Below are positions 6,319 through 64,000 of a stretch of DNA of 64,000 bases, piece after piece. Numbering within the stretch: the first letter of the stretch is position 1; each line of letters opens with the position of its first letter. Position numbers and translations under genes: made by a program. The stretch covers positions 73,036,001-73,100,000 of the forward strand of contig OX597823.1 in the NCBI GenBank assembly GCA_951406725.2, written 5' to 3'. The notes under the pieces were generated by a model. That model was not told the DNA's origin and ran no database searches. It saw only the letters and a list, made by a program, of their open reading frames with translations. This stretch comes from Octopus vulgaris (Eukaryota).

Positions 6319-6402
6319 TTTCCTCTGACGAAGGTGTAATTATCGTAATTTACCCTCGTGCATTAAATACGGTAATGAACCCCTGAAATGTCCATAGGGG
6401 AT
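6319..6402 (+). ncRNA. Type I hammerhead ribozyme motif
   Basis: CTGACGA at 6325-6331; helix II AGG/CCT; GAAA at 6385-6388; near-palindromic helix III ATGTCCAT; AUA site ending at 6396; helix I TTCCT/GGGGA with G-U pairs. Confidence 0.6.
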
Positions 6403-7889
6403 GTAAATATGGTTTCTTCTTTTTTGCTTGGACACTGGCTTTTCATAATAGGTTTTCCCCTTATCTTAAAAAGTAATTTTTAATCAGAACATTTCTAAAC
6501 GATGAACTTTTATCTTACCTTATATATTATATATTTATATGTTTCCTATATATATATATGTATTTTTATATATTTATATATTTCTTTATATTTTTTATAT
6601 ATTTATTATTCTAGAGGTTATAATGTTAATTTTGTTAGTCGCTAAAGTATTAATTATTAATTCTTAATCGAGATAGACTGTACTCACACATTTCTCTTAT
6701 ATGCTTGTATAAATGAATTATGTTTCATCTTCTGTGATTTGATGCATCTATATTCTATGTGTAAGAAAAAGCATTATGTGATTAAATGTTCGAGATGTGA
6801 TATGTTACGTTGATGATCTTATATTTGTTTTATCTGCAACCATAGTTTACTATTTTTGTCTCATTTACTTGAGCACTTCTATAGCAGTCCTATTTAACAT
6901 TTTGTTCCTGATAAGAAACAATCACTTTATTATTTATATATAATGTACAGAAAACGAAAGACAAAGACAGGTGAGGGAACAACAAGCTGGCATATTAGTT
7001 TTGCCCTTCTGAGAATTTTGTGCTTAAGGTGACTTGGCACCAAATCTTAGATTCATTCCGTTGGTGCATTGTTAGTTCTATCAAGAAATGTGAAGAATGT
7101 AGTATAATTTTTACATAATTGCAATCCATTGCTTTACATTTTACTTTTTCATTGAGAACTGTGCTTGTCTCTCGTTTTTTATTCAAGAACTTTACAATAT
7201 TTTTTGTCATGAATTTTATCGAAGTGTGTATACGTGCACACATCTTCCTATTTGCTATTTTTATAAACGTCAATTAGTATTTGGAACTATGTAAACATAT
7301 ATGAATGTGTCTGCTGAGAAAATATAAAGCAGAATTGATTTAGGCGTTTGTGATATTTTCATGTGTGACAATGGAAGCTGTCCTTTCTGTCGAATCCCTG
7401 GCTCAAATATTGAAAAGAATCTTATTATAAACCGTTCCTTTCCTTCGTTTCGAGGAACGCTGCATTTTTTGGAAATGTTCATGGATTATCGCTATTGTTG
7501 AAAATCGAATTCCAGACTGAATCCCCACCCCTTTCTTTTCAGTTAAAAAAGTGTTTAAAAATAGAATCAGGATATTGATTTTATCAACATTCCTGAGATA
7601 TTCAGAACAAAATATTTTTACGTCTTAAATGTGAAACGAACATAAAAAAAATATTCCTGAAATTTTTTTTAATGAATTATTTCGAGAATCTCGAATAAAA
7701 TATTAAAAAACGAAACTCAAATTGATATTTTAAATATTTCTTTCAAATTAGCATAATGAAGGAAACGGATTTGATATTTTTATTTTCATTCTTCCTATAT
7801 TTGTCATATTTTATGAGAATAATTTTCAAGTTAATATTTATAAGACATCTTACGTTCCAGAAGAGATTTTTCCCAACGATTTGCTCTCT

Positions 7890-36742: not shown

Positions 36743-36910
36743 TGTTTGTATATATATGTGTGTGTGTATGTATGTGTGTTGTGAGCATATGTATGTGTGT
36801 ACGTGTACGTGGGTATGTATTTGTCCATGAGTGTATATATATATATATATAACATTATTGGTGAATTGAAGAAATGGAGCTGAACGCAGATTGAACAGAA
36901 ATCGTTTTAT

Positions 36911-36997
36911 TTCATTCTACACGTGTTTCGAAAGGCACAAATTACCAAAATCCGATGGAATAATGGGACCATATTGTGTCTTTCTCTTCAGGAAGAA
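36911..36997 (-). ncRNA. Type I hammerhead ribozyme motif (antisense arm copy)
   Basis: Reverse complement of the 37179-37266 motif; TCTTCAG at 36985-36991. Confidence 0.8.
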
Positions 36998-37178
36998 AAT
37001 AGGAAATCCGTTGGAAAAACAAAAACAGAACAGAGGCGGAGCAAAAACAAATCGAACACCGGTTCTCAACATACACTGATAAACAGTTTCGCCATGGGCT
37101 CTTAGGAGCATAGTTCGATTTGTTTTTGCTCCGCCTCTGTTCTGTTTTTGTTTTTGTTTTTCCAACGGATTTCCTATT

Positions 37179-37266
37179 TTCTTCCTGAAGAGAAAGACAC
37201 AATATGGTCCCATTATTCCATCGGATTTTGGTAATTTGTGCCTTTCGAAACACGTGTAGAATGAAA
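37179..37266 (+). ncRNA. Type I hammerhead ribozyme motif, intact core
   Basis: TTC-CTGAAGA(37185-37191)-GAAAG...CTTTC-GAAA(37247-37250)-CACGTG-TA-GAA. Helix II is 5 bp plus the CACAA/TTGTG extension, helix III is the palindrome ACACGTGT, and the GUA site ends at 37258. Confidence 0.85.
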
Positions 37267-37475
37267 TAAAACGATTCCTGTTCAATCTGCGTTCAGCTCC
37301 ATTTCTTCAATTCACCAATAATGTTCTAATTTCAATTATCCGAACCAACGCACGGTTGCAACACCATATGGTTGTACCTCCAACCGTGCTGTTTTACTGC
37401 TGTGATTTTTGCTACTAAGGTATCGGTTAAACTTTTGATTAATCTACTACAAGATTATTCATCTTTCTATTTCAC

Positions 37476-40100: not shown

Positions 40101-40158
40101 CTGTTAAACAGTAACAGCTGTTAAACAGTAACAGCTGTTAAACAGTAACAGCTGCTAA
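40101..40158. repeat. 17-bp tandem repeat (CTGTTAAACAGTAACAG, about 3.4 copies) at the LINE 5' junction
   Basis: Read directly. Confidence 0.9.
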
Positions 40159-40159
40159 A

Positions 40160-41875
40160 ATTGAGGACCCTTATCAACAGAGTCAATTATTTGCCGAGGC
40201 TTTTTCAACTATTTTCAAACAAGATGATGGTCGTGAACCCCCTCCATTTGTTAGATCGGTACCTCCAATGCTTCGATTGGTCATCACGCGGGACGAAGTC
40301 AAACGTGTTATTCAAGGCCTCGATGTCAACAAAGGTCACGGCCCTGACGGCATACACCCACGGGTTATCAAAGCGTTGGCTCCGGTCATCTGCGAGCCCT
40401 TAACACGACTATTCAATATGTCATTGGCGACGGGTGTTATACCTGCAGACTGGAGAACAGCGATAATCTGCCCAATTTTCAAGAAAGGGAGCCGCGAAGA
40501 CCCGCTTAACTACCGACCGGTTTCCCTTACATCAATTATCAGCAAGATGTTCGAAACCATCCTTAAGAAAAGTATGATGCTCCACCTCCTAAACACAGCC
40601 TCTACCTCTGATTCCCAACACCGCTTCGTGCCGAAGAGATCATGCTTGACCAACCTACTAGTAATGGAAGAATTGGTGACGCGCATCCTCGATGATAGTG
40701 ATGCTGTTGACATCGTTTTACTGGACTTTGCCAAAGCTTTTGACTCGGTAAACCACCGCCTATTGCTTGTCAAGCTTCAAGCATATAGTTTCCATCCGGA
40801 TATTGTACGATGGGTTGGTGCCTTCCTCTCAGATCGCTCCTTCCAAGTCCAAGTTAATGGTTCGTGGTCCGACGTCTCCAGTGCGAGTAGTGGCGTGCCT
40901 CAAGGTTCAGTGCTTGGGCCCTTGTTGTTCTTAGTCTTCATAAATGACTTGCCTGACGACCTCACGCAACACACCCTTCTATTTGCCGACGATATCAAAC
41001 TGGTCGCTCCTCGCGGTAATATAGAGGATCTTCGTCGATGCCTCCACCAAATTTGGAAGTGGTCTAACAATTGGGACCTGTGTCTGAACGTGTCAAAGTG
41101 CTGTCATCTGCCTGTCGGCTCTACTCCTGCAACTCAACTTGATTTCGAGCCGGGTCGTCTGCTGCTGGAGAGGACCGATCAGGTAAAGGACCTAGGTATC
41201 TTGGTGGATTCCTCCTTTTCGCCTTCGGCCCAGTGCGTCCATGGTGCCAACAAAGCACGCAGAATTCTGTTCTTGATTCGACGGTCATTCGGAATGCTCA
41301 CAGCAGCCATATTCCTACCACTCTATGTCACGCTGTTGAGACCCATATTGGAGTACGGGATTCAAGCCTCTTCTTCTTATCTCCTCAAAGACATACAGCA
41401 TCTCGAAAGAGTCCAGAAGCTGGCTACCCGCATGGTTCATGGTCTCAAAAATGTGTCCTACGAAGAAAGGCTGAGGACGCTCGACCTTTATCCTCTAGAA
41501 AAACGCCGCCGCCGTGGTGATCTCATTCTCGCCCACAACATCATAAGCGGAAAGTGTAACCTCTCGAAAGAGCTGTTCTTCACTCCTGCTCCAGAGCGTC
41601 GGCTGCGGGGTCATTCCGAAAAGCTCTACCTGCGACGATTTCATCTCAATCGAAGGAGAGGAGCTTTCTCCGTCCGGGTTGCGGATCCATGGAACAAGCT
41701 GCCAGACGAGATGGTGAAGATGCCGACGACCGCTTTGTTCAAAGCCTCCCTTGACCTCAAGTGGCCTGAACTCTTTACATGAACACCACCCTGTACTTAA
41801 CTCCATGTCCCCCTACATGGCCTTGCTATTTGCTTTTGAGCCAAATTAACTAACTAAGTAACTAACTAACTAAAA
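40160..41875 (+). mobile_element. 5'-truncated CR1-group LINE with (AACT)n tail
   Basis: GC-richer block with an open RT frame, a short 3' UTR and the tail AACTAACTAAGTAACTAACTAACT. Confidence 0.92.
40268..41782 (+). CDS. Non-LTR retrotransposon reverse transcriptase (ORF2 C-terminal part; endonuclease lost)
   Basis: GPDGIHP, NYRPVSLTS, LDFAKAFDSV, GVPQGSVLGPLLF, LFADDIKL, KDLG and LERVQ motifs; the frame is also open upstream to about 40160. Confidence 0.92.
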   Translation: MLRLVITRDEVKRVIQGLDVNKGHGPDGIHPRVIKALAPVICEPLTRLFNMSLATGVIPADWRTAIICPIFKKGSREDPLNYRPVSLTSIISKMFETILKKSMMLHLLNTASTSDSQHRFVPKRSCLTNLLVMEELVTRILDDSDAVDIVLLDFAKAFDSVNHRLLLVKLQAYSFHPDIVRWVGAFLSDRSFQVQVNGSWSDVSSASSGVPQGSVLGPLLFLVFINDLPDDLTQHTLLFADDIKLVAPRGNIEDLRRCLHQIWKWSNNWDLCLNVSKCCHLPVGSTPATQLDFEPGRLLLERTDQVKDLGILVDSSFSPSAQCVHGANKARRILFLIRRSFGMLTAAIFLPLYVTLLRPILEYGIQASSSYLLKDIQHLERVQKLATRMVHGLKNVSYEERLRTLDLYPLEKRRRRGDLILAHNIISGKCNLSKELFFTPAPERRLRGHSEKLYLRRFHLNRRRGAFSVRVADPWNKLPDEMVKMPTTALFKASLDLKWPELFT

Positions 41876-53892: not shown

Positions 53893-56754
53893 ATATATTT
53901 TGGCATGTATTTCTCTGTACATCTCGTAAGAAATATAGTAGCACTGCAACCCTACTATTCTCTATCGTACTCTGCTCCGATTCACATCACTTGTCGATCT
54001 CCTTCGTCAGTACTTGATCAACTAGTTCGTCAGTCTTAATGCTGAAGTCATCCATACAAACGAATTTGTCACTATTTATTTACTCTCACTTGTTTACAAA
54101 AAGCAGGAATTTGTAGTCTATGTAGCTAACTAGTCAAAGTCTCAGATAACTTCAAACAATGCTAACGGACAAACCGATGATTGTGTATAAGACGCTGAGT
54201 ATGAAGTAAATAAGCCGATGTTTTCTTTTTCAAATCAACACTGGTGCAGCAAGAAAAATCCAAGCGAAATCTCAGTGAGTTGAAGCTTCTTGGGCAGGTT
54301 TGTGAACTTTTAAACCACTTTTACTTATATGCTACTAACATGCATCTTTTGAATGCATCTTCTACATACAAAACATGGAATTGCAAGACGAATTTTTATG
54401 AGACTCGGGTTACAAAATATCCCGAAGCACACTAGGAGGGAAGGCAATTAATGACAAAAATATCAGATACACGCAACCCGATCACCTTAAATATTTTTCA
54501 CACACTTGATCATATTCATTAGAAATATTGAACGAGGATTCCGTTAAAAGGTTTGTTTTATCGTCTTTTTACCAAGAAAAATTTTTGTAACCTCAAATAT
54601 TTTTCATTCACTGTGGTAATTCTTATTCAAGTCAGAAACGTTAAAGGATTTTTTTTTTCTTGTCTATGATACACTTTTTTTCCCGATCGAAAAAGCTTGA
54701 TGCGTTGCTCAATCTGTGATTAATAAAGATAATAATAATAATACTTCTTAAAACCCATGTTTTTATGTAGACCTCAATATTTGACCACTGGCTGGTCTAA
54801 TGACTGAAACAAGTGAAAGGTAAAAGACAAAAGACCACCTCAAATTCCCCATCCTTCTGAGGTATCACATGTATGGATCAAAGGACTCACATCTACCAAT
54901 ACGTTTTTCTGTCTTGTGTAGAATAGTTGTGTTATTTTGCTTGTTGCTCTTTTGCAAACATGTTGCTTGGCATTCTTATATTTCTCCATCATGTTTGACA
55001 TAAGAACTTCTATCATATCCTGGATCTACTTATCTACTTTTCCAACGCTTTCTGACGGACCTATATGGCGCTGAGCCATATTATATTTAGGCTGGCGTAG
55101 TTCATTATTGCTTGTGCAGCCTAGAATCTTTCATTTATATATGAATGGCATACTTCTAACAATAAACCACTTGACGATGACAACACACTATACTCTATTG
55201 ATTATTCATTCACAATTTTCATCAACACAATCTAAACACAAGACATAGTAGTATTTCCAATTTGAAAAGATACCCACATACGGGGATACAATTTCCTGTG
55301 CCGCAAAATTACATTCGTTATTCATCTGAAATAATCTTGCGCTGCATGCTTCCTTATAACTAAGTAGTACATAACATACGCTTTCAAAGTTGTTATTGTA
55401 GGATGCGAGGAAAATAACCATTTCTGTCAAACTCTTAATAACATCACATATAACACTTCAAAGTAGAATTATAAGAATATTCTTCTTCGAGGTTAGTAAT
55501 TCTTCCGCCTTGATCAGTTTCTTCTGACATATTTCAAACTTCAGATGTCACTAACATTAAATATTTTCATCAATCTGTGTTAAGGCTATTGATTATTTCT
55601 ACAAGTAAAAACACACAAAACTGAGTTTGTTAAAAAGCAATCTGTTGATTAGCAAACAGTCAGTCAGCAAACACTGTAACAAATGTTTTATATATTCATT
55701 ATTTCAACTATGACGGCTTCTGTGGCAAATAATTGTATATCTGTCTATTCACAAACGGAATCTGTATTTTGGTGTTTATGAACGTCCTTAATACCTTTTA
55801 CCGCTTTAAACTATTGCATAGTAACTGTCACTTTCCTCCAAACTCTAGTTACTAGTATGCGGGGAGCATATATATGTCCGTGATTAAAATGTTATTAAGC
55901 ATATTTTCCAAGCTTATTACAGGTTTTCTTCAGTCGAGTACAATGCAGTAAATATTTGAATACTTGATATTTTATTGCTAACAATGAAATCCAACATCAT
56001 AAAGGTTACTTTATAAGCTATAAAAGAGGATGAATGATGAGACGGGAAATATTCCCATAGAGATACTCAATCACAGTTTATATGGCGCTTTTGTATTCTT
56101 GTATTATAAAAAAGTGACTATGTTGTTAATTATGTGATTCAAAATATGCAGTTCACTAATGTTTATTGATGGTATCAGATGTTTGTGTTTTATTTCTCTT
56201 TTACAATATCAGGCTACAAATGTATTTTTGATATCTTCTGATGCCAAATTATGTTATTATATCATAGGGGCCGTGTGTAAACATAGCTTAGAAATTCAAA
56301 TCCATAAGATACTTTGAGAAATTAGTATGCTACCGACTAAAAGAGTAAAATAAGGAAACTGAGACCGAAATTTTGAAGCTCAGGCTCGTTTATTTTATGT
56401 TTCATGTTTCAGAATCATACGGAACTGATTTCTTCTAACTCTGCTATACTGATATGCATCCTGGTGCGTTTAAAAGAAGGTAAAGTAAGATTATAACACT
56501 TACTTGTTGCGTGGAGAGGAAAGGGCAGTGCCCATGGCTTTGCAAGACATTCTAGACACCCTAAACTGATAAAATGGATGGCATTAATGTTTCCTACCAA
56601 TTTTTATGAAAACTTGTGAGAAAAATTAGGGCAGGAATTCCAGAGGAGAAAGAATTTTTATATTCCAGTTTGTGGGGTTGTTCAATATATTTACCAGCGA
56701 ACACTAATCAAGCAGATATTTTTAATATTTATAATATAATGGATGGTGGAGTAA

Positions 56755-56960
56755 TATCAACTATGTTCCTTTCCTGGGAAAGGTAGAACCTGACATTTAT
56801 AGTTTAGCCTAAGACATAAGACTTGCAACAGAATGAACTCTGCTAAAGGTAGATAAGATACTGGTGGAGGTGTTATGCTGGAAATTAACAGTATCATCCT
56901 TAAGTGCAAAGCAGCCAATGTGGGTCTGCACAACTCCTGTTTGTTTAATTGTTCATTTCC
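56755..56960 (+). mobile_element. Possible LINE AP-endonuclease remnant
   Basis: FLGKVEPDI... and R*DTGGGVMLEI (DR...GGGV motif); decayed. Confidence 0.35.
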
Positions 56961-57059
56961 CACTCAAGGTCTGTATCGATCTGAGAATATAGATAAGGTG
57001 CCGAATATGGAACTAGGTGATTGGATGATTGTGGCGTAAACTTCATACGACTAATAAAC

Positions 57060-58690
57060 GCATACGACAAATAAACGCATGCAAGATAGCCACAGACATA
57101 ATAATCAAAGCCCCTACTCTTAATGATCTCAAACTGAGACCTATAATAGCTGGTGCCTCATATGAAACCCAGTGTCTCAGTAACTTTTTAGATACCCTCT
57201 TAAAACCACTCCTCGAGCATGCCAAAAGCTATATAAGAGACGAGCTGGGTATGCTCAATCACCTTCCTATAATAATAAAGAAAAACACCCTACTAGTATC
57301 CTTTAATGTAGTCAAATTCTATTCCAATATCCCCCACAACCTAGGAATAGAGGCAATTCAATTCTGGCTGGAGAATTACCCCCAGTGAACTCCCACATCG
57401 CATGAAAACAGAATTCGTGATAGAAGGGCTAAAATTCATCCTGGATAATAACTACTTCGTCTTCAAATACAACTTCTACCGACAAAAATCGGGGACTGTG
57501 ATGGGTACCAGAATCGCCCCTCCTTTTCTAACCTAGTCATGGGATGTCTAGAAATTAGTCTTTATCGTAAGGATCTAGAAAGATACGGCTCCCATTTTCC
57601 CTCTACATAGAAAATAACTGAAAGAGACACCTGGATGATTGTTTCATTCTTTGGTATGAACATGTAGAAAAACTTAAAGAATTCCAAGCACATTTAAATG
57701 AACTTGACGTAAACATTCAATTCACAATGGAATATAGCCAGCAACAACTTGCCTTCCCAGACGTCCTCATTAAGAAATCTAACAACGTAATTGAAACAAA
57801 TATATATACTATAAGCCTACAGACTCCAAGCAATATTTACCGTTCCACTCATGCCACTCCAGACACACCAGAATGAATATCCCATTGAACCTAGCAAAAA
57901 GGATATGTACTATAGTTTCTAATGCAATCACCAGAGACACACGACTACATGGACTAAAGGATACACTCATCACCAGAAACTACCCACCCTCACTAATTGA
58001 CATATGCTTTCAACGTGCCCTTCAACTCAACATCCAGGAACGCAAACATCCCAAATTAAAGAAGGATTTACAACCAAAAGCCCTACCATACACCTCCACA
58101 CACAACCCTCTCAACAACGAAGCATTTGACGCCATCCTTCAACACATTCCCCTGCTAAAAAGGGGCCACATAATGAACTTAGTACTCCAAACAGACACCA
58201 TCATAAAAAGCAAGAGACAGCCCAAATCTATGAAAAGTCTCCTAACACAAGCCCGAATACGCTCAAGAACACAGAAGCCGTCAGTAAAAAAATACAGAAG
58301 ACCCAACTGTGGGATATGCGTCAATTTAGTTGAGCGATGAGAGTTCTCCTTCAAACAGGGACAACGTTTCACAGCGAAAAGCAACTTCACATGTGCTTCG
58401 GAGAATATGATATACGCACTAACCTGCTCTGGCCAAACAAAAAACAGTCTACATAAAAGAATGGCTCTGCACAGATCCCAGATCAAAATTTCCCCAAAAC
58501 AGAAAAATAGCATTCAGCCAACACATAGACATTTGCGCCAATAACAAAAATCCAAGCTTCAGAATTTTCCCCCTCTACCAATTCAGGGACGATACAAACT
58601 GTAGCGAACGAGTAAAGAGACTCGCTTTAGTAAAGAGACTCGCTTTATTACAAAATACAGATACCTTTTGAACGCGTTTATAACAAACGA
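57060..58690 (+). mobile_element. Decayed Penelope-like retroelement (RT + GIY-YIG), second family
   Basis: LRPIIAG, LVSFNVVKFYSNIPH, FYRQKSGTVMG, HLDDCF, IQFTME, YYKPTDS, NIPLNLAKRICTIVS, RPNCGIC and NMIYALTC motifs across frameshifts. Confidence 0.9.
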
Positions 58691-59064
58691 TATATCCACC
58701 ACGGCCTTAGAATAACACAAATACACACGCAAATATTAAAAATGATACACTCAAGAGATTCCCGAGAATTTATTAAAAAACAGTCACAATCACTTCTATA
58801 ATCCATAACGAGTCAATTTTAGGTCACATGCCCATTTAACACCTTACTGCTATCATACTACCTATATTCCTTCTTATTCTCCCTTCTCTGTCTCCTTCTT
58901 CTTCTTCGTCTTCTTCATCTCCGCCACCTCCTTCCTAATTTTACCACTATTGCTATTTAGAATAAGACCTACGCAAAATTTATAAACGAAACATTCAAAA
59001 GAGATGTTTCAGGAATTCAATCACTACTGCCATCCACATCGGATCACTTGCGGGGCAGTTAACC

Positions 59065-59343
59065 ATCTTCTTCTTCTTCTCCTTCTTCTTCTTCTTCTTC
59101 TTCTTCTTCTTCTTCTTCTTCTTCTTCTCCTCCTCCTCCTCCTCCTCCTTCTTCTTCTTCTTCTTCTCCTTTATCTTCTTGTTCTTCTTCTTCTCCTTCT
59201 TCTTCTTCTTCTTCCTCCTCCTCCTCCTCCTCCTCCTTCTTCTTCTTCTCCTTTATCTTCTTCTTCTTCTTCTCCTCCTCCTTCTTCTTCTTCTTCTTCT
59301 TCTTCTCCTCCTCCTCCTCCTCCTTCTTCTTCTTCTTCTTCTT
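59065..59343. repeat. Polypyrimidine (CTT/CCT)n tract
   Basis: Read directly. Confidence 0.95.
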
Positions 59344-59594
59344 TCCGATCAAGAATTCACAACGACCTCGCACCCAAAAAAGTAAACAAGAGAGACTGAG
59401 AGAAACAGGCAGAAACAAGGAAAATGCCCCTTGTATTTGAACACTATGAAAATATTCTTTTAAAAAACTTTTGTTTTAATTTTTCCAAAATATAATTGTT
59501 TTCCATACTTACATTTGAAAAAGTTCCAATGACTGAAACGGGAACTGAAATGATTTTTAAAAAAATATTTTAGCATTTTCTATCTTGAGTTTTT

Positions 59595-59667
<73 letters not shown>

Positions 59668-60346
59668 AAGTTAAAAGTTATCGGTAAACGTTTTTGATTT
59701 TCACTCTCGATAAATTCATCCCCTTTTGTGTTCCCAGCACTCGGCATCTTAATTTAGGAGCCCTTAATTGTATAACTACATGAATAATATTTTTTCTATA
59801 TGAATAATATTTTGTCTTATGACTAATTCGTCTTTTGTGCTGGGCACCTGGTAGTAAATAATATTACTACCCTTCTTGTTTATATTCGTATATTACATGA
59901 TGGATTTATACGTAAAATTCTTCCCGGCATGCCCTATACTGCCGTGTAAATTTTGCGTCTGCGCAGAGATTTGAAAAGTTAAGATCTGCTAGTAGTCGGG
60001 TTCAACACATGGTCCCACATCGCTGCAGACCTCGATTAAATTTAGGCGACTCGCTGATGAAGCTAGCCTTAGCAAACATATTCTGTGTTTTGCTAGAAAG
60101 AAGCAGAAACCGCGGTTCGAGTTGTAAAAGTTATCGGTAAACGTTTTTGATTTTCACTCTCGATAAATTCTTCCCTTTTTGTGTTCCCAGCACTCGGCAT
60201 CTTAATTTAGGAGCCCTTAATTGTATAACTACATGAATAATATTTTTCTATATGAATAATATTTTTGTCTTATGACTAATTCGTCTTTTGTGCTGGGCAC
60301 CTGGTAGTAAATAATATTACTACCCTTCTTGTTTATATTCGTATAT
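59668..60346 (+). mobile_element. Non-coding 453-bp unit in 1.5-mer tandem containing a hammerhead (retrozyme / Penelope pseudo-LTR-like), inserted in (TA)n
   Basis: 59672-59893 is repeated at 60125-60346; the hammerhead lies immediately before the second copy; TA tracts on both sides. Confidence 0.8.
60046..60125 (+). ncRNA. Type I hammerhead ribozyme motif
   Basis: Helix I GCGACTCG/CGAGTTGT; CTGATGA at 60054-60060; helix II (A)GCT/AGC(A) plus inner hairpin TAGCAAACATA/TGTGTTTTGCTA; GAAA at 60106-60109; palindromic helix III ACCGCGGT; GUU site ending at 60117. Confidence 0.8.
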
Positions 60347-60361
60347 ATATATATATATATA

Positions 60362-61971
60362 CAGTTGCGGCCAAAATGTTCAGAACGGCATTGTTTTCGT
60401 CAGAAAAGTAGGTATAAGTTTTTATTAAAGTTGTTTTATATTCTATAATTTTCAAAGACAATAAATACGATATGAATTGGTATTGTCTGAGATTTTGGTG
60501 TAATTTGAATGGACAATACAAACGTTATGGATGATATAGTTATTTACTGCAAAACCTAAGGCGGCCAAAACGATTAGAACGGTTGAAAAAATAACAAAAT
60601 AATCAAAAAGTGACAGAGAGTGCTGGAATTATTTCATATTTAGTGTGAAGCCCTTTAGCTTTAATCAAAATTTGACATTTTTGACTGCATGGCGAAATTA
60701 AATTTTCAATTTTTTACTGGGTGATCTTATCCCGTTCTTCCCGAAGAGCATTTCATAATTGCTCGGTTGTTTTAGGATTTCTGGCTTTCAAACGTTCTCC
60801 TAGAATATTCCACACATTTTCAATAGGATTGAGATCTGGGCTTTGAGCAGGCCAATCCATATCAATAACCTTTTCAGCCTTGAGGAAGTTCATGACCACC
60901 TTAGCCTTGTGACATGGGGCATTGTCCTGCATGAATATGGGTGGTCGCATAGTTGAATTTCTCAGCACAGGCAAGACATGATCTTTTACAAGTTGTTTAT
61001 AAACTCCTGCATTTACATTTCCATGTAATCGCACCAAAGGGCCCACAACATCTCCAGATATCATCTCCCAAACCATGACACTTCCTCCACCGAATTTAAC
61101 ACTAGTCTTAAGGCATTTAGGTGACAATTTTCCACCTGCTTTTCGACGAACGTACTTTTTCCCATCTGAGTCAAATTACATATACTTAGATTCATCACTG
61201 AAATGCACCGTTCTTGAGACCACAACACATGTTCGGAGGCAAAGGTAAGACGACACTTTTTATTCTTGGAGCTGATCAGTGGCTTCACTGCAGGTGGTCT
61301 TGCTTGTAGGTCATGTTTAACTAAAGGACTAGACACAGTTTTTCGAGATAAAGTTTTCTTCAGTACAATGCTCATTTCCCGAGAAACAGCAGCAGCAGTT
61401 TTAAATCTGCCCTTTTTAACCAACTTTACCAAAGCGCGATCTTCTCTCTTGGTCGTTTTTCTTGGCCTACCTGTAGACTTTCTTGCTTCACACGAACCAA
61501 AATCATCGTAGACCTTAAGAATACCGTTAACAACACTTTTTGACTTGTTAACAATCTTTGCAATAGACCTAATACTTAAATTATCCTTCTTTCGAAGCTT
61601 AATAATCTGCTGACGAATTGGTAACGGAGTAAGTGGCTTTATATTAACAAAGTACACTGCAGATATTCTTATTAATGTTTAGTAAACGAACTGTCACGTA
61701 AACAAATTCAAAACATTAGAGTTCAACGGTTAAATATACTAAAACATGGAGTAAAAGCAACCGTTCTGATCATTTGTCCACCATGGGTTTTGCAGTAAAT
61801 CACTAAATCATGCATAACTTTTTTATTATCCTCTCAAATTACACCAAAATCTCAGACAATAACAAATAATATTGTATTTATTGTGAAAATTATAGAATAT
61901 AAAACAACTTTGATAAAAACTTATACCTACTTTTCTGACGAAAACATTGCCGTTCTGAACATTTTGGCCGC

Positions 61972-61976
<5 letters not shown>
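60362..61976 (-). mobile_element. Tc1 (DD34E) DNA transposon with ~225-bp IR/DR-type TIRs, inserted in (TA)n
   Basis: CAGTTGCGGCCAAAATGTTCAGAACGGCA... at 60362 and its reverse complement ending at 61976; TA flanks. Confidence 0.95.
60633..61657 (-). pseudogene. Tc1 transposase, frameshifted near 61210 with a premature stop at 60753
   Basis: Paired-like HTH and GRPRK, FSDESK, GGGSVMVW, QDNAPCH and SPDLNPIENVW; 34 residues counted between the second D and the E. Confidence 0.92.
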
Positions 61977-62041
<65 letters not shown>

Positions 62042-62695
62042 GTGTGTTCGAGTGTGTATGACGGGGTTCTGCGCAAATTTAATCTACCAATCACAAGTCA
62101 GATACTTGCTCAAGGGCATCTAACTGTTAATGACATGATTGGGGAAGGATATTCTTAATATCAAACCCATACCAATGAATGGCAAGTGCCAATAGCTATA
62201 CAAGATTATCTTCCAGTTGCTATAATTTGGTCTTGTATTTGAAACGGTGTTCGATCTACTTCAGGTTATCATGAAATCCACTTCGTAATAAAAGTGTTAT
62301 AGAATGGGGTGGGGTGCAATATCCAATATTTTCTTATATGATTATGAGTTTGATATTCGATTGCTAATATAATCTGTCACATTTTTTCTTAGTTATGGAT
62401 GAGTGATCAGAGCTGATTTAACATATAATATTTCTCCATTTGACATTCGATACATGTTACAGCTCAGTGGCGTTGAAATGTCAGGCCGTATCGATGAACT
62501 TCATTATTTTTAAGTTCAGCTTTATTGCAATTATTAGGTAAAACATTTTATACTCATTCCATTGTATGTGTACACACACATACAAAAAAACACATGCACA
62601 CACACACACACATGCACGAACTCACACACACATACACACATGCATAAATATGTGTGAAAACATTCATGCACTAACAAATATATCTACATTCATAA

Positions 62696-63045
62696 AGGCG
62701 GCGAGCTGGCAGAAACGTTAGCACGCCGGGCGAAATGCTTAGCAGTATTTCGTCTGCCGTTACGTTCTGAGTTCAAATTCCGCCGAGGTCGACTTTGCCT
62801 TTCATCCTTTCGGAGTCGATTAAGTAAGTACCAGTTACGCACTGGGGTCGATATAATCGGCTTAATCCCTTTGTCTGTCCTTGTTTGTCCCGTGTGTATT
62901 TAGCCCCTTGTGGGCAATAAAGAAATAAGAAAGGTTAGCACGCCGGGCGAATTTCGCCAAGGTCGACTTTTCTTTTCATCCTTTCGGGGTCGATAAATTA
63001 AGTACCAGTTGTGTACTGGGGTCGATCTAATCGACTAGCCCCCTA
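62696..63045 (+). mobile_element. SINE family A copy followed by a partial second unit
   Basis: Full copy at 62696-62930; deleted repeat of head and core at 62931-63045. Confidence 0.85.
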
Positions 63046-64000
63046 CTAATGTACTAATGATTAATATCCCGTTTTATACTACTATTGTACTAATTTTTGA
63101 ACGTGTAAATTGTTTGTTTTATAAGAGTGTAGTTTCGCAGGTAAAATCATCTATGAATTCTTTACAAGACTGTCTTGAGTAACTTACACTATATAATATT
63201 ATTCGTTTTGTTAAAAATTTAATTACGTCTCTTAGTAACAATTCGATTAGATTCTCAAGCACTGTGTTTTATTTTTGGTATCTTAGTAATAAAAAGTGGC
63301 CTGCTTTGGTGATAATATATCACGTTTATTTCTTTAGTATTAAAGCTTTTAGCTATTACTATCAACTGGCTTTTTGCCTTATTTAACAGAATGATATGAA
63401 CGAAAAATCATACTGCAATATCAATGCTAATATGGTAGTCGCTGCTATAAGATCAACAGTAGCAGCACTAGTTTCCATTCAGTGTTGATTCTTCTTATTA
63501 TTCTTGTATCAAGCGTTTGTATCACTGCACAATCTACTATTGAGTGACAGACTCTGATACGCATTAAAGGAATGTAAAACATAGAGTAAATGAGCGAAAT
63601 CTTAGTGAATAGATTTTAAAGCATATTTATCCATTAAGTCGAAATTGTTGCTAGGGTAACAGCTGATGCTGGGGAGATATTATGGACTTTCATTTAAATA
63701 GAATACGACTTAACTCTCATCAATAACATTCAACAGATGAGAACCAATAGAATATCGATGGAATCTGCTTCAGTAACAGAACACAACTACCAAACAGAAC
63801 GATATAGAGCGATAATTGATTGCAGAAGTCCGTCAATAATGCGATATAATGAGCAAAATGTATTGCGATTACTACTACTTCTACCACTACGTAAATTATT
63901 GATTTTACTCTAGAAACAAGATCATTTTTTTTCTTTTTTTTTTAAGCGACAATTACACATTCGATTAAAATATCTTCGATGAATTTCTGACATCTTTTTT

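Follow-up and report, generated by a model that had tools for sequence, protein, structure and literature searches.

The window analyzed here is a 64,000-nt stretch of the Octopus vulgaris genome (assembly GCA_951406725.2, contig OX597823.1, positions 73,036,001 to 73,100,000 of the forward strand), and coordinates are those of the window unless otherwise stated. An insertion made of 1.5 head-to-tail copies of a 453-nt unit lies on the plus strand between a (TA)n/(TG)n tract (59597-59667) and a second (TA)n tract (60347-60361). The first copy is 5'-truncated (59672-59893, unit positions 232-453) and is followed by a complete unit (59894-60346); its 222 nt recur at 60125-60346, at a spacing of 453 nt, with two substitutions and two single-base gaps. 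Units were numbered such that position 1 is 59894 and position 453 is 60346, and the predicted ribozyme cut falls between positions 224 and 225 (60117/60118). At the 5' junction, AAAGT (59667-59671) echoes letters 7 nt downstream, and this 5-nt reiteration with a period of 7 is likely a product of re-priming by a reverse transcriptase (RT). The complete unit contains a TGCGTCTGCGCAG-core motif region (59951-59981), the only complete hammerhead of the window copy (60046-60125), and two zones where other copies of the family end (60219-60234 and 60327-60346), the second of which is also where the window copy terminates. GC content of the unit is 37.5%, and the repeat has neither coding capacity (the longest ATG-started frame is 43 aa) nor an LTR layout. 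A preliminary description of this DNA had reported a direct repeat of ~220 bp with a period of 453 bp, (TA)n on both sides and no ORF, all of which hold. It had also let the first copy begin at the cleavage site; clean alignment starts at the counterpart of 60125 (cut +7), a few nucleotides past the cut and not coincident with it. Because the flanks are mostly (TA)n, a target-site duplication is unreadable.

The tract on the 5' side is the tail of an older, degraded Neptune-type Penelope-like element (PLE; 57038-59597, plus strand) with RT and GIY-YIG pieces 40-61% identical to an intact family. The ORF of this copy (57038-58673) has its own 3' region extending to 59597, and its (TA)n tail is the site of the insertion. 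By eye, a hammerhead-like motif of minimal type, with a U3-A8 core, could be read at 59515-59556, and a similar motif is found in the intact Neptune-type family. On the 3' side, a Tc1/mariner element with long imperfect inverted repeats (60362-61975) adjoins the same (TA)n tract and contains a transposase fragment (61061-61678, minus strand, PF01498). Elsewhere in the window, a 546-aa frame with a LINE-type RT domain (PF00078, E 3e-31) lies at 40142-41782 on the plus strand. A second hammerhead element (36897-37290) is built of two inverted arms with cores at 37185 (plus) and 36991 (minus), a canonical G-C pair at the helix II base and a palindromic helix III.

The predicted ribozyme, with its cut after 60117, comprises helix I of eight pairs (60046-60053/60118-60125), the core segments CUGAUGA (60054-60060) and GAAA (60106-60109), a long helix II (60062-60104) with A60061 and A60105 unpaired or mismatched at its base, and a 2-bp helix III formed by the palindrome ACCGCGGU (60109-60116; self-duplex -14.1 kcal/mol), with GUU at 60115-60117. 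Unconstrained folding did not yield the hammerhead, whose fold (-18.5 kcal/mol) lies 3.2 kcal/mol above the unconstrained minimum (-21.7 kcal/mol) and is not more stable than those of shuffled sequences (z = -0.7 to -0.9). A search with Rfam models, proposed as a check in the preliminary description, returned no hammerhead from 54000-64000 at E<=1; its matches were to miRNAs, driven by microsatellites, and, weakly, to one riboswitch. The assignment therefore rests on the core sequence, helix I and variation across copies. Among 87 loci, variants common to at least three loci alter the core only at N7 (U/C) and H17 (U/A) and hit no invariant core base; the probability that two variable positions of 15 would both be the free ones by chance is 1 in 105. 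Other shared variants in the hammerhead fall at two outer helix II positions and in loop II; in the remaining ones, loop III gains 2 nt and helix I loses 3 nt at its outer end. Core positions are thus under selection, with variation confined to tolerated positions. Judged by its sequence, the type I hammerhead is real and present once per unit, as had been proposed for 60046-60125, and the suggested examination of core and helix covariation also came out in its favor, both through these core variants and through compensatory changes in all three helices of a sister family.

The base of helix II is unusual. Both positions are A in every locus that covers them (62/62 and 65/65). The G10.1-C11.1 pair of PLE-type hammerheads is not found directly before GAAA, an A intervening in 65/65 loci, and a genome-wide pattern for a non-A base before GAAA gave two matches, both of them truncation junctions at loci already in the set. 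The A-A mismatch had been explained as a possible post-insertion mutation; it is fixed family-wide and shared with older relatives, which refutes that explanation. Cleavage of the unit is predicted to be slow and dimer-assisted, given the odd helix II base and the 2-bp palindromic helix III. No account of this core variant was found in the literature searched, which covered few subscription journals.

Two related hammerhead families occur in the genome. The sister family (663 candidates) has a 400-nt unit, 63% identical to the focal unit over 356 nt, with a canonical G-C pair at the helix II base and compensatory changes in each of its three helices. Unlike the focal family, it showed no inverted arms in the 20 loci fetched. 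Sister copies at 6380-6940 (minus strand) of locus L100 and in L158-L177 are young, with a fixed 3' end in (TA)n. The second, older and diverged family (L178-L207) was found through the TGCGTCTGCGCAG motif (139 matches), which lies upstream of the ribozyme in all three families and may be a promoter element. In the older family, an A precedes GAAA in 17 of the 19 parsable loci among 30 fetched, and a G-C pair comes next in 12 of the 19; the A before GAAA is therefore an old variant that has been kept. Many of these copies have U at core position 3, and one separate PLE piece was found in the 30 loci.

To count copies of the focal unit, the genome was searched by DNA similarity and by exact patterns. 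The similarity search gave 140 matches from the 40 scored of 1060 candidates, with full-length matches 95-99% identical. An exact 29-nt motif from the 3' end matched 269 times (its reversed control, 0 times) and the hammerhead core pattern 203 times, such that the genome search called for in the preliminary description speaks against a single-copy unit. Loci with the exact 3' motif appear to number ~160. Set A consisted of the 60 loci that hold the first 100 of the 269 motif matches and was not chosen by length; set B consisted of 19 loci with the best full-length matches. Together they provide 79 loci and 129 arms, after one duplicate arm each in L109 and L137 was dropped before the arm count; L105 is possibly two separate insertions. 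The family is a young, dispersed one of well over a hundred insertions of an ORF-less 453-nt hammerhead unit, the majority of them in (TA)n tracts.

The 3' ends of the 129 arms fall mainly at unit positions 434-453 (74 arms, grading into (TA)n) and 326-341 (33 arms). Selection of the main set by a motif close to the 3' end favors arms that extend that far. Ten further arms end at 301-316, three at 350-362 and nine elsewhere, mostly running into (TA)n. The main 3' ends lie at a constant distance of about 220-229 nt beyond the cut, and 5' truncation is variable. By type, the 79 loci comprise 31 with a single arm, 43 with a back-to-back pair and five complex ones. Of the two-armed loci, 41/43 combine one main end with one upstream end, and it is the inverted second arms that stop at 326-341. 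In set A, 42/94 arms wrap past the unit boundary, in line with the earlier proposal that copying continued for more than one unit, and an array with nine cores is located at C5:72143527-72147138. These insertions bear the marks of PLEs: partial tandems, 5' truncation, an inverted arm, two internal start zones and an AT-rich target. In 12 of the 43 two-armed loci the 5' ends of the two arms lie no more than 20 nt apart in unit coordinates (p = 3e-4). Fold-back synthesis and collision of two enzymes are candidate causes of this proximity; a simple collision model with two enzymes on one circle was dropped, since arm lengths differ by more than 600 nt (e.g. L002).

The preliminary description had the 5' ends set by the cleavage site. 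None of the 129 arms starts at unit positions 219-229, and the genome contains 0 matches to the exact pattern for a start at 221-225, so a pile-up at the cut was rejected. Individual starts near the cut are found in L143, a diverged copy (88% identical) that begins at unit position 224, the cut itself, in L150 (227, cut +2) and in L155 (220). A cluster at 230-233 (cut +5 to +8) comprises 6/60 set A loci, with 0.83 arms expected if starts were uniform; a 4-nt window holding six was produced near the cut by 1.3% of simulations and anywhere in the unit by 24%. The genome-wide pattern for the test window matched 13 times at 11 loci (10 after removing L155), and control windows matched 8 and 6 times. 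A pile-up at +5 to +9 is modest, at ~1.4- to 2-fold, and is not confirmed by these controls. There are 132 read-throughs of the cut site by arms and nine arm ends in the 10 nt that follow it. The cluster lies where helix I has its outer end (unit positions 225-232).

Junctions of the window type occur in L058, L109, L122, L147, L149 and L151. Reiterations of at least 5 nt are found in 4/11 arms ending at unit positions 225-240 and in 5/118 elsewhere (Fisher p = 0.003, post hoc), an excess confounded by the local GTT-AAA-GTT, which supplies a built-in slip register; for reiterations of at least 6 nt the counts are 1/11 and 5/118 (p = 0.42). Among eight further loci, reiterations of 34, 15 and 13 nt were measured in L147, L151 and L149, and the short repeats reach about seven GTTAAA units in L147. 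We read this junction pattern as stalling at helix I with re-priming, and a template that ended at the cut is a less probable reading. The literature searched, again with few subscription journals, yielded no report of reiteration at a hammerhead in PLEs.

Units within a locus are nearly uniform. At 28 diagnostic columns, within-locus comparisons agreed in 1024 of 1037 cases, and between-locus comparisons disagreed in 19928 of 65741 (30%). Private variants include 13 that are common to all copies in their locus and 87 that are not shared within the locus, the latter being expected from copying errors and later mutation. The 55 fully covered loci resolve into 32 haplotypes. So many haplotypes combined with uniform arrays imply repeated passage through a single unit followed by re-expansion, a history more easily reached from a circle or by template jumping than from a linear multimer. 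The circular fold of the unit has z = -1.8, with 2 of 60 shuffles as stable. Contigs from four sequencing runs guessed to be RNA cover the unit and neighboring repeats too, and such contigs, which carry no information on strand, level or circularity, were not used as evidence; none of the runs with the unit is on record as RNA. A head-to-tail joint in four runs of unknown kind was rejected as a sign of circles, being expected from tandem DNA anyway. Near-identical sequence is found in runs labeled as six organisms.

A possible source of enzyme is a young Neptune-type family in the same genome, with intact 781-aa ORFs encoding RT and GIY-YIG endonuclease, a Cys motif before the endonuclease, and copies ending in (TA)n. 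In L091-L099, members of this family have an additional ORF upstream of the 781-aa ORF (479 aa stop-to-stop in L094 and L099), for which no Pfam match was obtained. The terminal repeat of the intact family is unrelated to the 453-nt unit, and a search of 30 GIY-YIG loci and 17 wider stretches turned up nothing that convincingly resembles the unit; the best match in a PLE locus was an AT-rich 47 nt (E 8e-4). Unit-like matches in L100 were discarded as a partner because they are the focal family itself and its sister family. Given the lack of DNA similarity to the fetched PLE pseudo-LTRs, the link to a partner rests on insertion anatomy. The partner is likely a Neptune-type element. PLE ORF pieces were found in the flanks of 6/87 loci, in varied orientation and separate from the unit, and the unit was continuous with an RT ORF in 0/87 loci (of roughly 160 or more). 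The unit therefore behaves as an independent non-autonomous element.

We interpret the window copy as a 5'-truncated retrozyme insertion of 1.5 units that was likely written into (TA)n by a PLE RT and GIY-YIG endonuclease acting in trans, and we put the probability of this reading at about 80%. The Penelope-type insertion of an ORF-less hammerhead tandem, put forward in the preliminary description, is supported by fixed 3' ends, inverted arms and partial tandems. The PLE enzyme would nick (TA)n and prime inside the RNA at unit positions 434-453, and the other strand would often prime at 326-341 to give the inverted arm. A unit-length template would be copied for more than one lap. The RT would usually read through the ribozyme and would sometimes stall at the outer end of helix I and re-prime a few letters back, and such an event would have made the 5' end of the window copy. 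A circle joined at the hammerhead site is the most likely template, at odds slightly better than even, the alternatives being template jumping on a linear monomer and an uncleaved multimer.

Note that a linear multimer made by transcription of a tandem array and left uncleaved, with the ribozyme slow or idle and no circle formed, accounts for the 132 read-throughs against nine stops as well as a circle does. It also suits the lack of an exact 5' end at the cut, the weak-looking core and, in the part of the source used here, the finding that unprocessed RNA was the main substrate of one PLE in vitro (PMC11167929). Such a template, used by the same family and enzyme, is nevertheless on the unlikely side as a full account, since it cannot supply the single-unit passage implied by the 32 haplotypes, the uniform arrays and the 13 locus-private shared variants, and core positions are still under selection. 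The form in which the preliminary description explained the 5' end, as the template end produced by ribozyme cleavage, some letters of which went missing or were scrambled on joining, draws on the six unselected loci at cut +5 to +8, on L143 and L150, and on the excess of reiterations, as expected where a template runs out. We consider it doubtful, because the arms and the exact genome-wide pattern are empty at the cut, the ten test-window loci compare with 8 and 6 control matches, a window of six is not rare when placed anywhere in the unit, and the peak matches the outer end of helix I, which is present in uncleaved RNA too.

Two further explanations dispense with an independent retrozyme or with retrotransposed tandems. 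The unit could be the pseudo-LTR of an autonomous PLE and its copies truncated insertions of that element, for which the degraded Neptune-type ORF upstream on the same strand and the PLE-type ribozyme traits (an unpaired base after A9 and a palindromic helix III, as listed in the consulted part of PMC4209133) can be cited. This is improbable: the 3' region of that ORF ends at 59597 and is unrelated to the unit, what lies upstream of a unit is another unit and not coding DNA, and, in the 87 loci read, the ORF pieces in flanks differ in orientation and are never continuous with it. The possibility that copies always abut a Penelope ORF, raised at the outset as the mark of an ordinary pseudo-LTR, is thus answered in the negative. 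Local DNA duplication of single insertions by unequal crossover, in the manner of a minisatellite, would produce uniform units within a locus and is put forward for retrozyme arrays in a recent survey, in the part drawn on here (10.64898/2026.07.22.740005). It leaves unexplained the common stop positions and variable starts of arrays, as well as wrapped inverted arms that obey the same end rule, and is the most improbable of the explanations weighed here.

Retrozymes of this kind are known, and the following comparisons refer to the parts of the cited sources available here. Metazoan non-LTR retrozymes range from 150 to 450 bp, with examples in coral, Mytilus (350-390 bp) and axolotl (330/350 bp) (Cervera and de la Pena 2020, PMC7229834). 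Where they carry a target-site duplication, it is longer than 4 bp. The focal family resembles them in that its tandem units are non-coding, a few hundred bp long and below 50% GC, each with a single type I hammerhead and a short palindromic helix III. Judged on sequence features, the family belongs to this class: it is dispersed, multi-copy and tandem, with one hammerhead and no ORF. A parallel to its core is axolotl HHR_Amex2, which has a U-U mismatch at the helix II base and a 2-bp helix III; the axolotl retrozyme with this mismatch cleaves slowly and does so better as a dimer (PMC7229834). Differences from the retrozymes in that source are the 453-nt unit, at the top of the 150-450 bp range, a long helix II whose base has the A-A (or a G-C pair with an additional A on each side), and the (TA)n target with no readable duplication.

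Animal retrozymes have been argued to derive from and depend on PLEs (Li, Clavereau and Pollet 2026, 10.64898/2026.07.22.740005), in a survey with units of 51-972 bp in which 8/9 Xenopus retrozyme dimers did not cleave in vitro. Arrays with at least two complete hammerheads, such as the nine-core array, fit its definition of an active retrozyme. That argument uses co-occurrence in vertebrates and pseudo-LTR homology, whereas insertion anatomy is used here and no homologous pseudo-LTR was found. PLE insertions are described as partially tandem, with an inverted arm truncated at its 5' end, a tail on one side and (TA)n as the target (10.1101/2021.04.23.441226), and one PLE in vitro primes internally at two sites on both strands, with hammerhead cleavage unnecessary for insertion (PMC11167929). 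PLE hammerheads have an unpaired base after A9, a conserved G10.1-C11.1 pair and a palindromic helix III (PMC4209133). The focal family shares with EN+ PLEs of the Neptune and Poseidon clades the partial tandems, the inverted 5'-truncated arm, AT-rich or (TA)n targets, the one-sided tail from two internal start sites and the unpaired base after A9. It differs from them in its lack of an ORF, in not being the pseudo-LTR of the elements examined, and in a tail of ~110-120 nt compared with 30-40 nt.

Since both the class and its proposed dependence on PLEs were already known, the finding itself is ordinary, and the value of the family is as a record of mechanism. For in vitro tests it supplies a defined RNA, two zones where copying would start and a site where it would stall, with which one could ask whether circles are the templates of retrozymes and whether a Penelope enzyme can add repeats like its relative telomerase. 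With its conserved A ahead of GAAA, the core is a naturally occurring variant of a kind that standard hammerhead models can miss, as the lack of an Rfam match illustrates. Telomerase adds repeats at its template boundary, and the Penelope RT is a relative of telomerase. A tentative extension, which we hold to be clearly less likely than not, is that helix I acts as a telomerase-like template boundary for the Penelope RT, and that the core variant, an N and an A on either side of the first G-C pair of helix II, slows cleavage so that circles persist; the RT would stall at helix I, slip back 6-7 nt and add short repeats.
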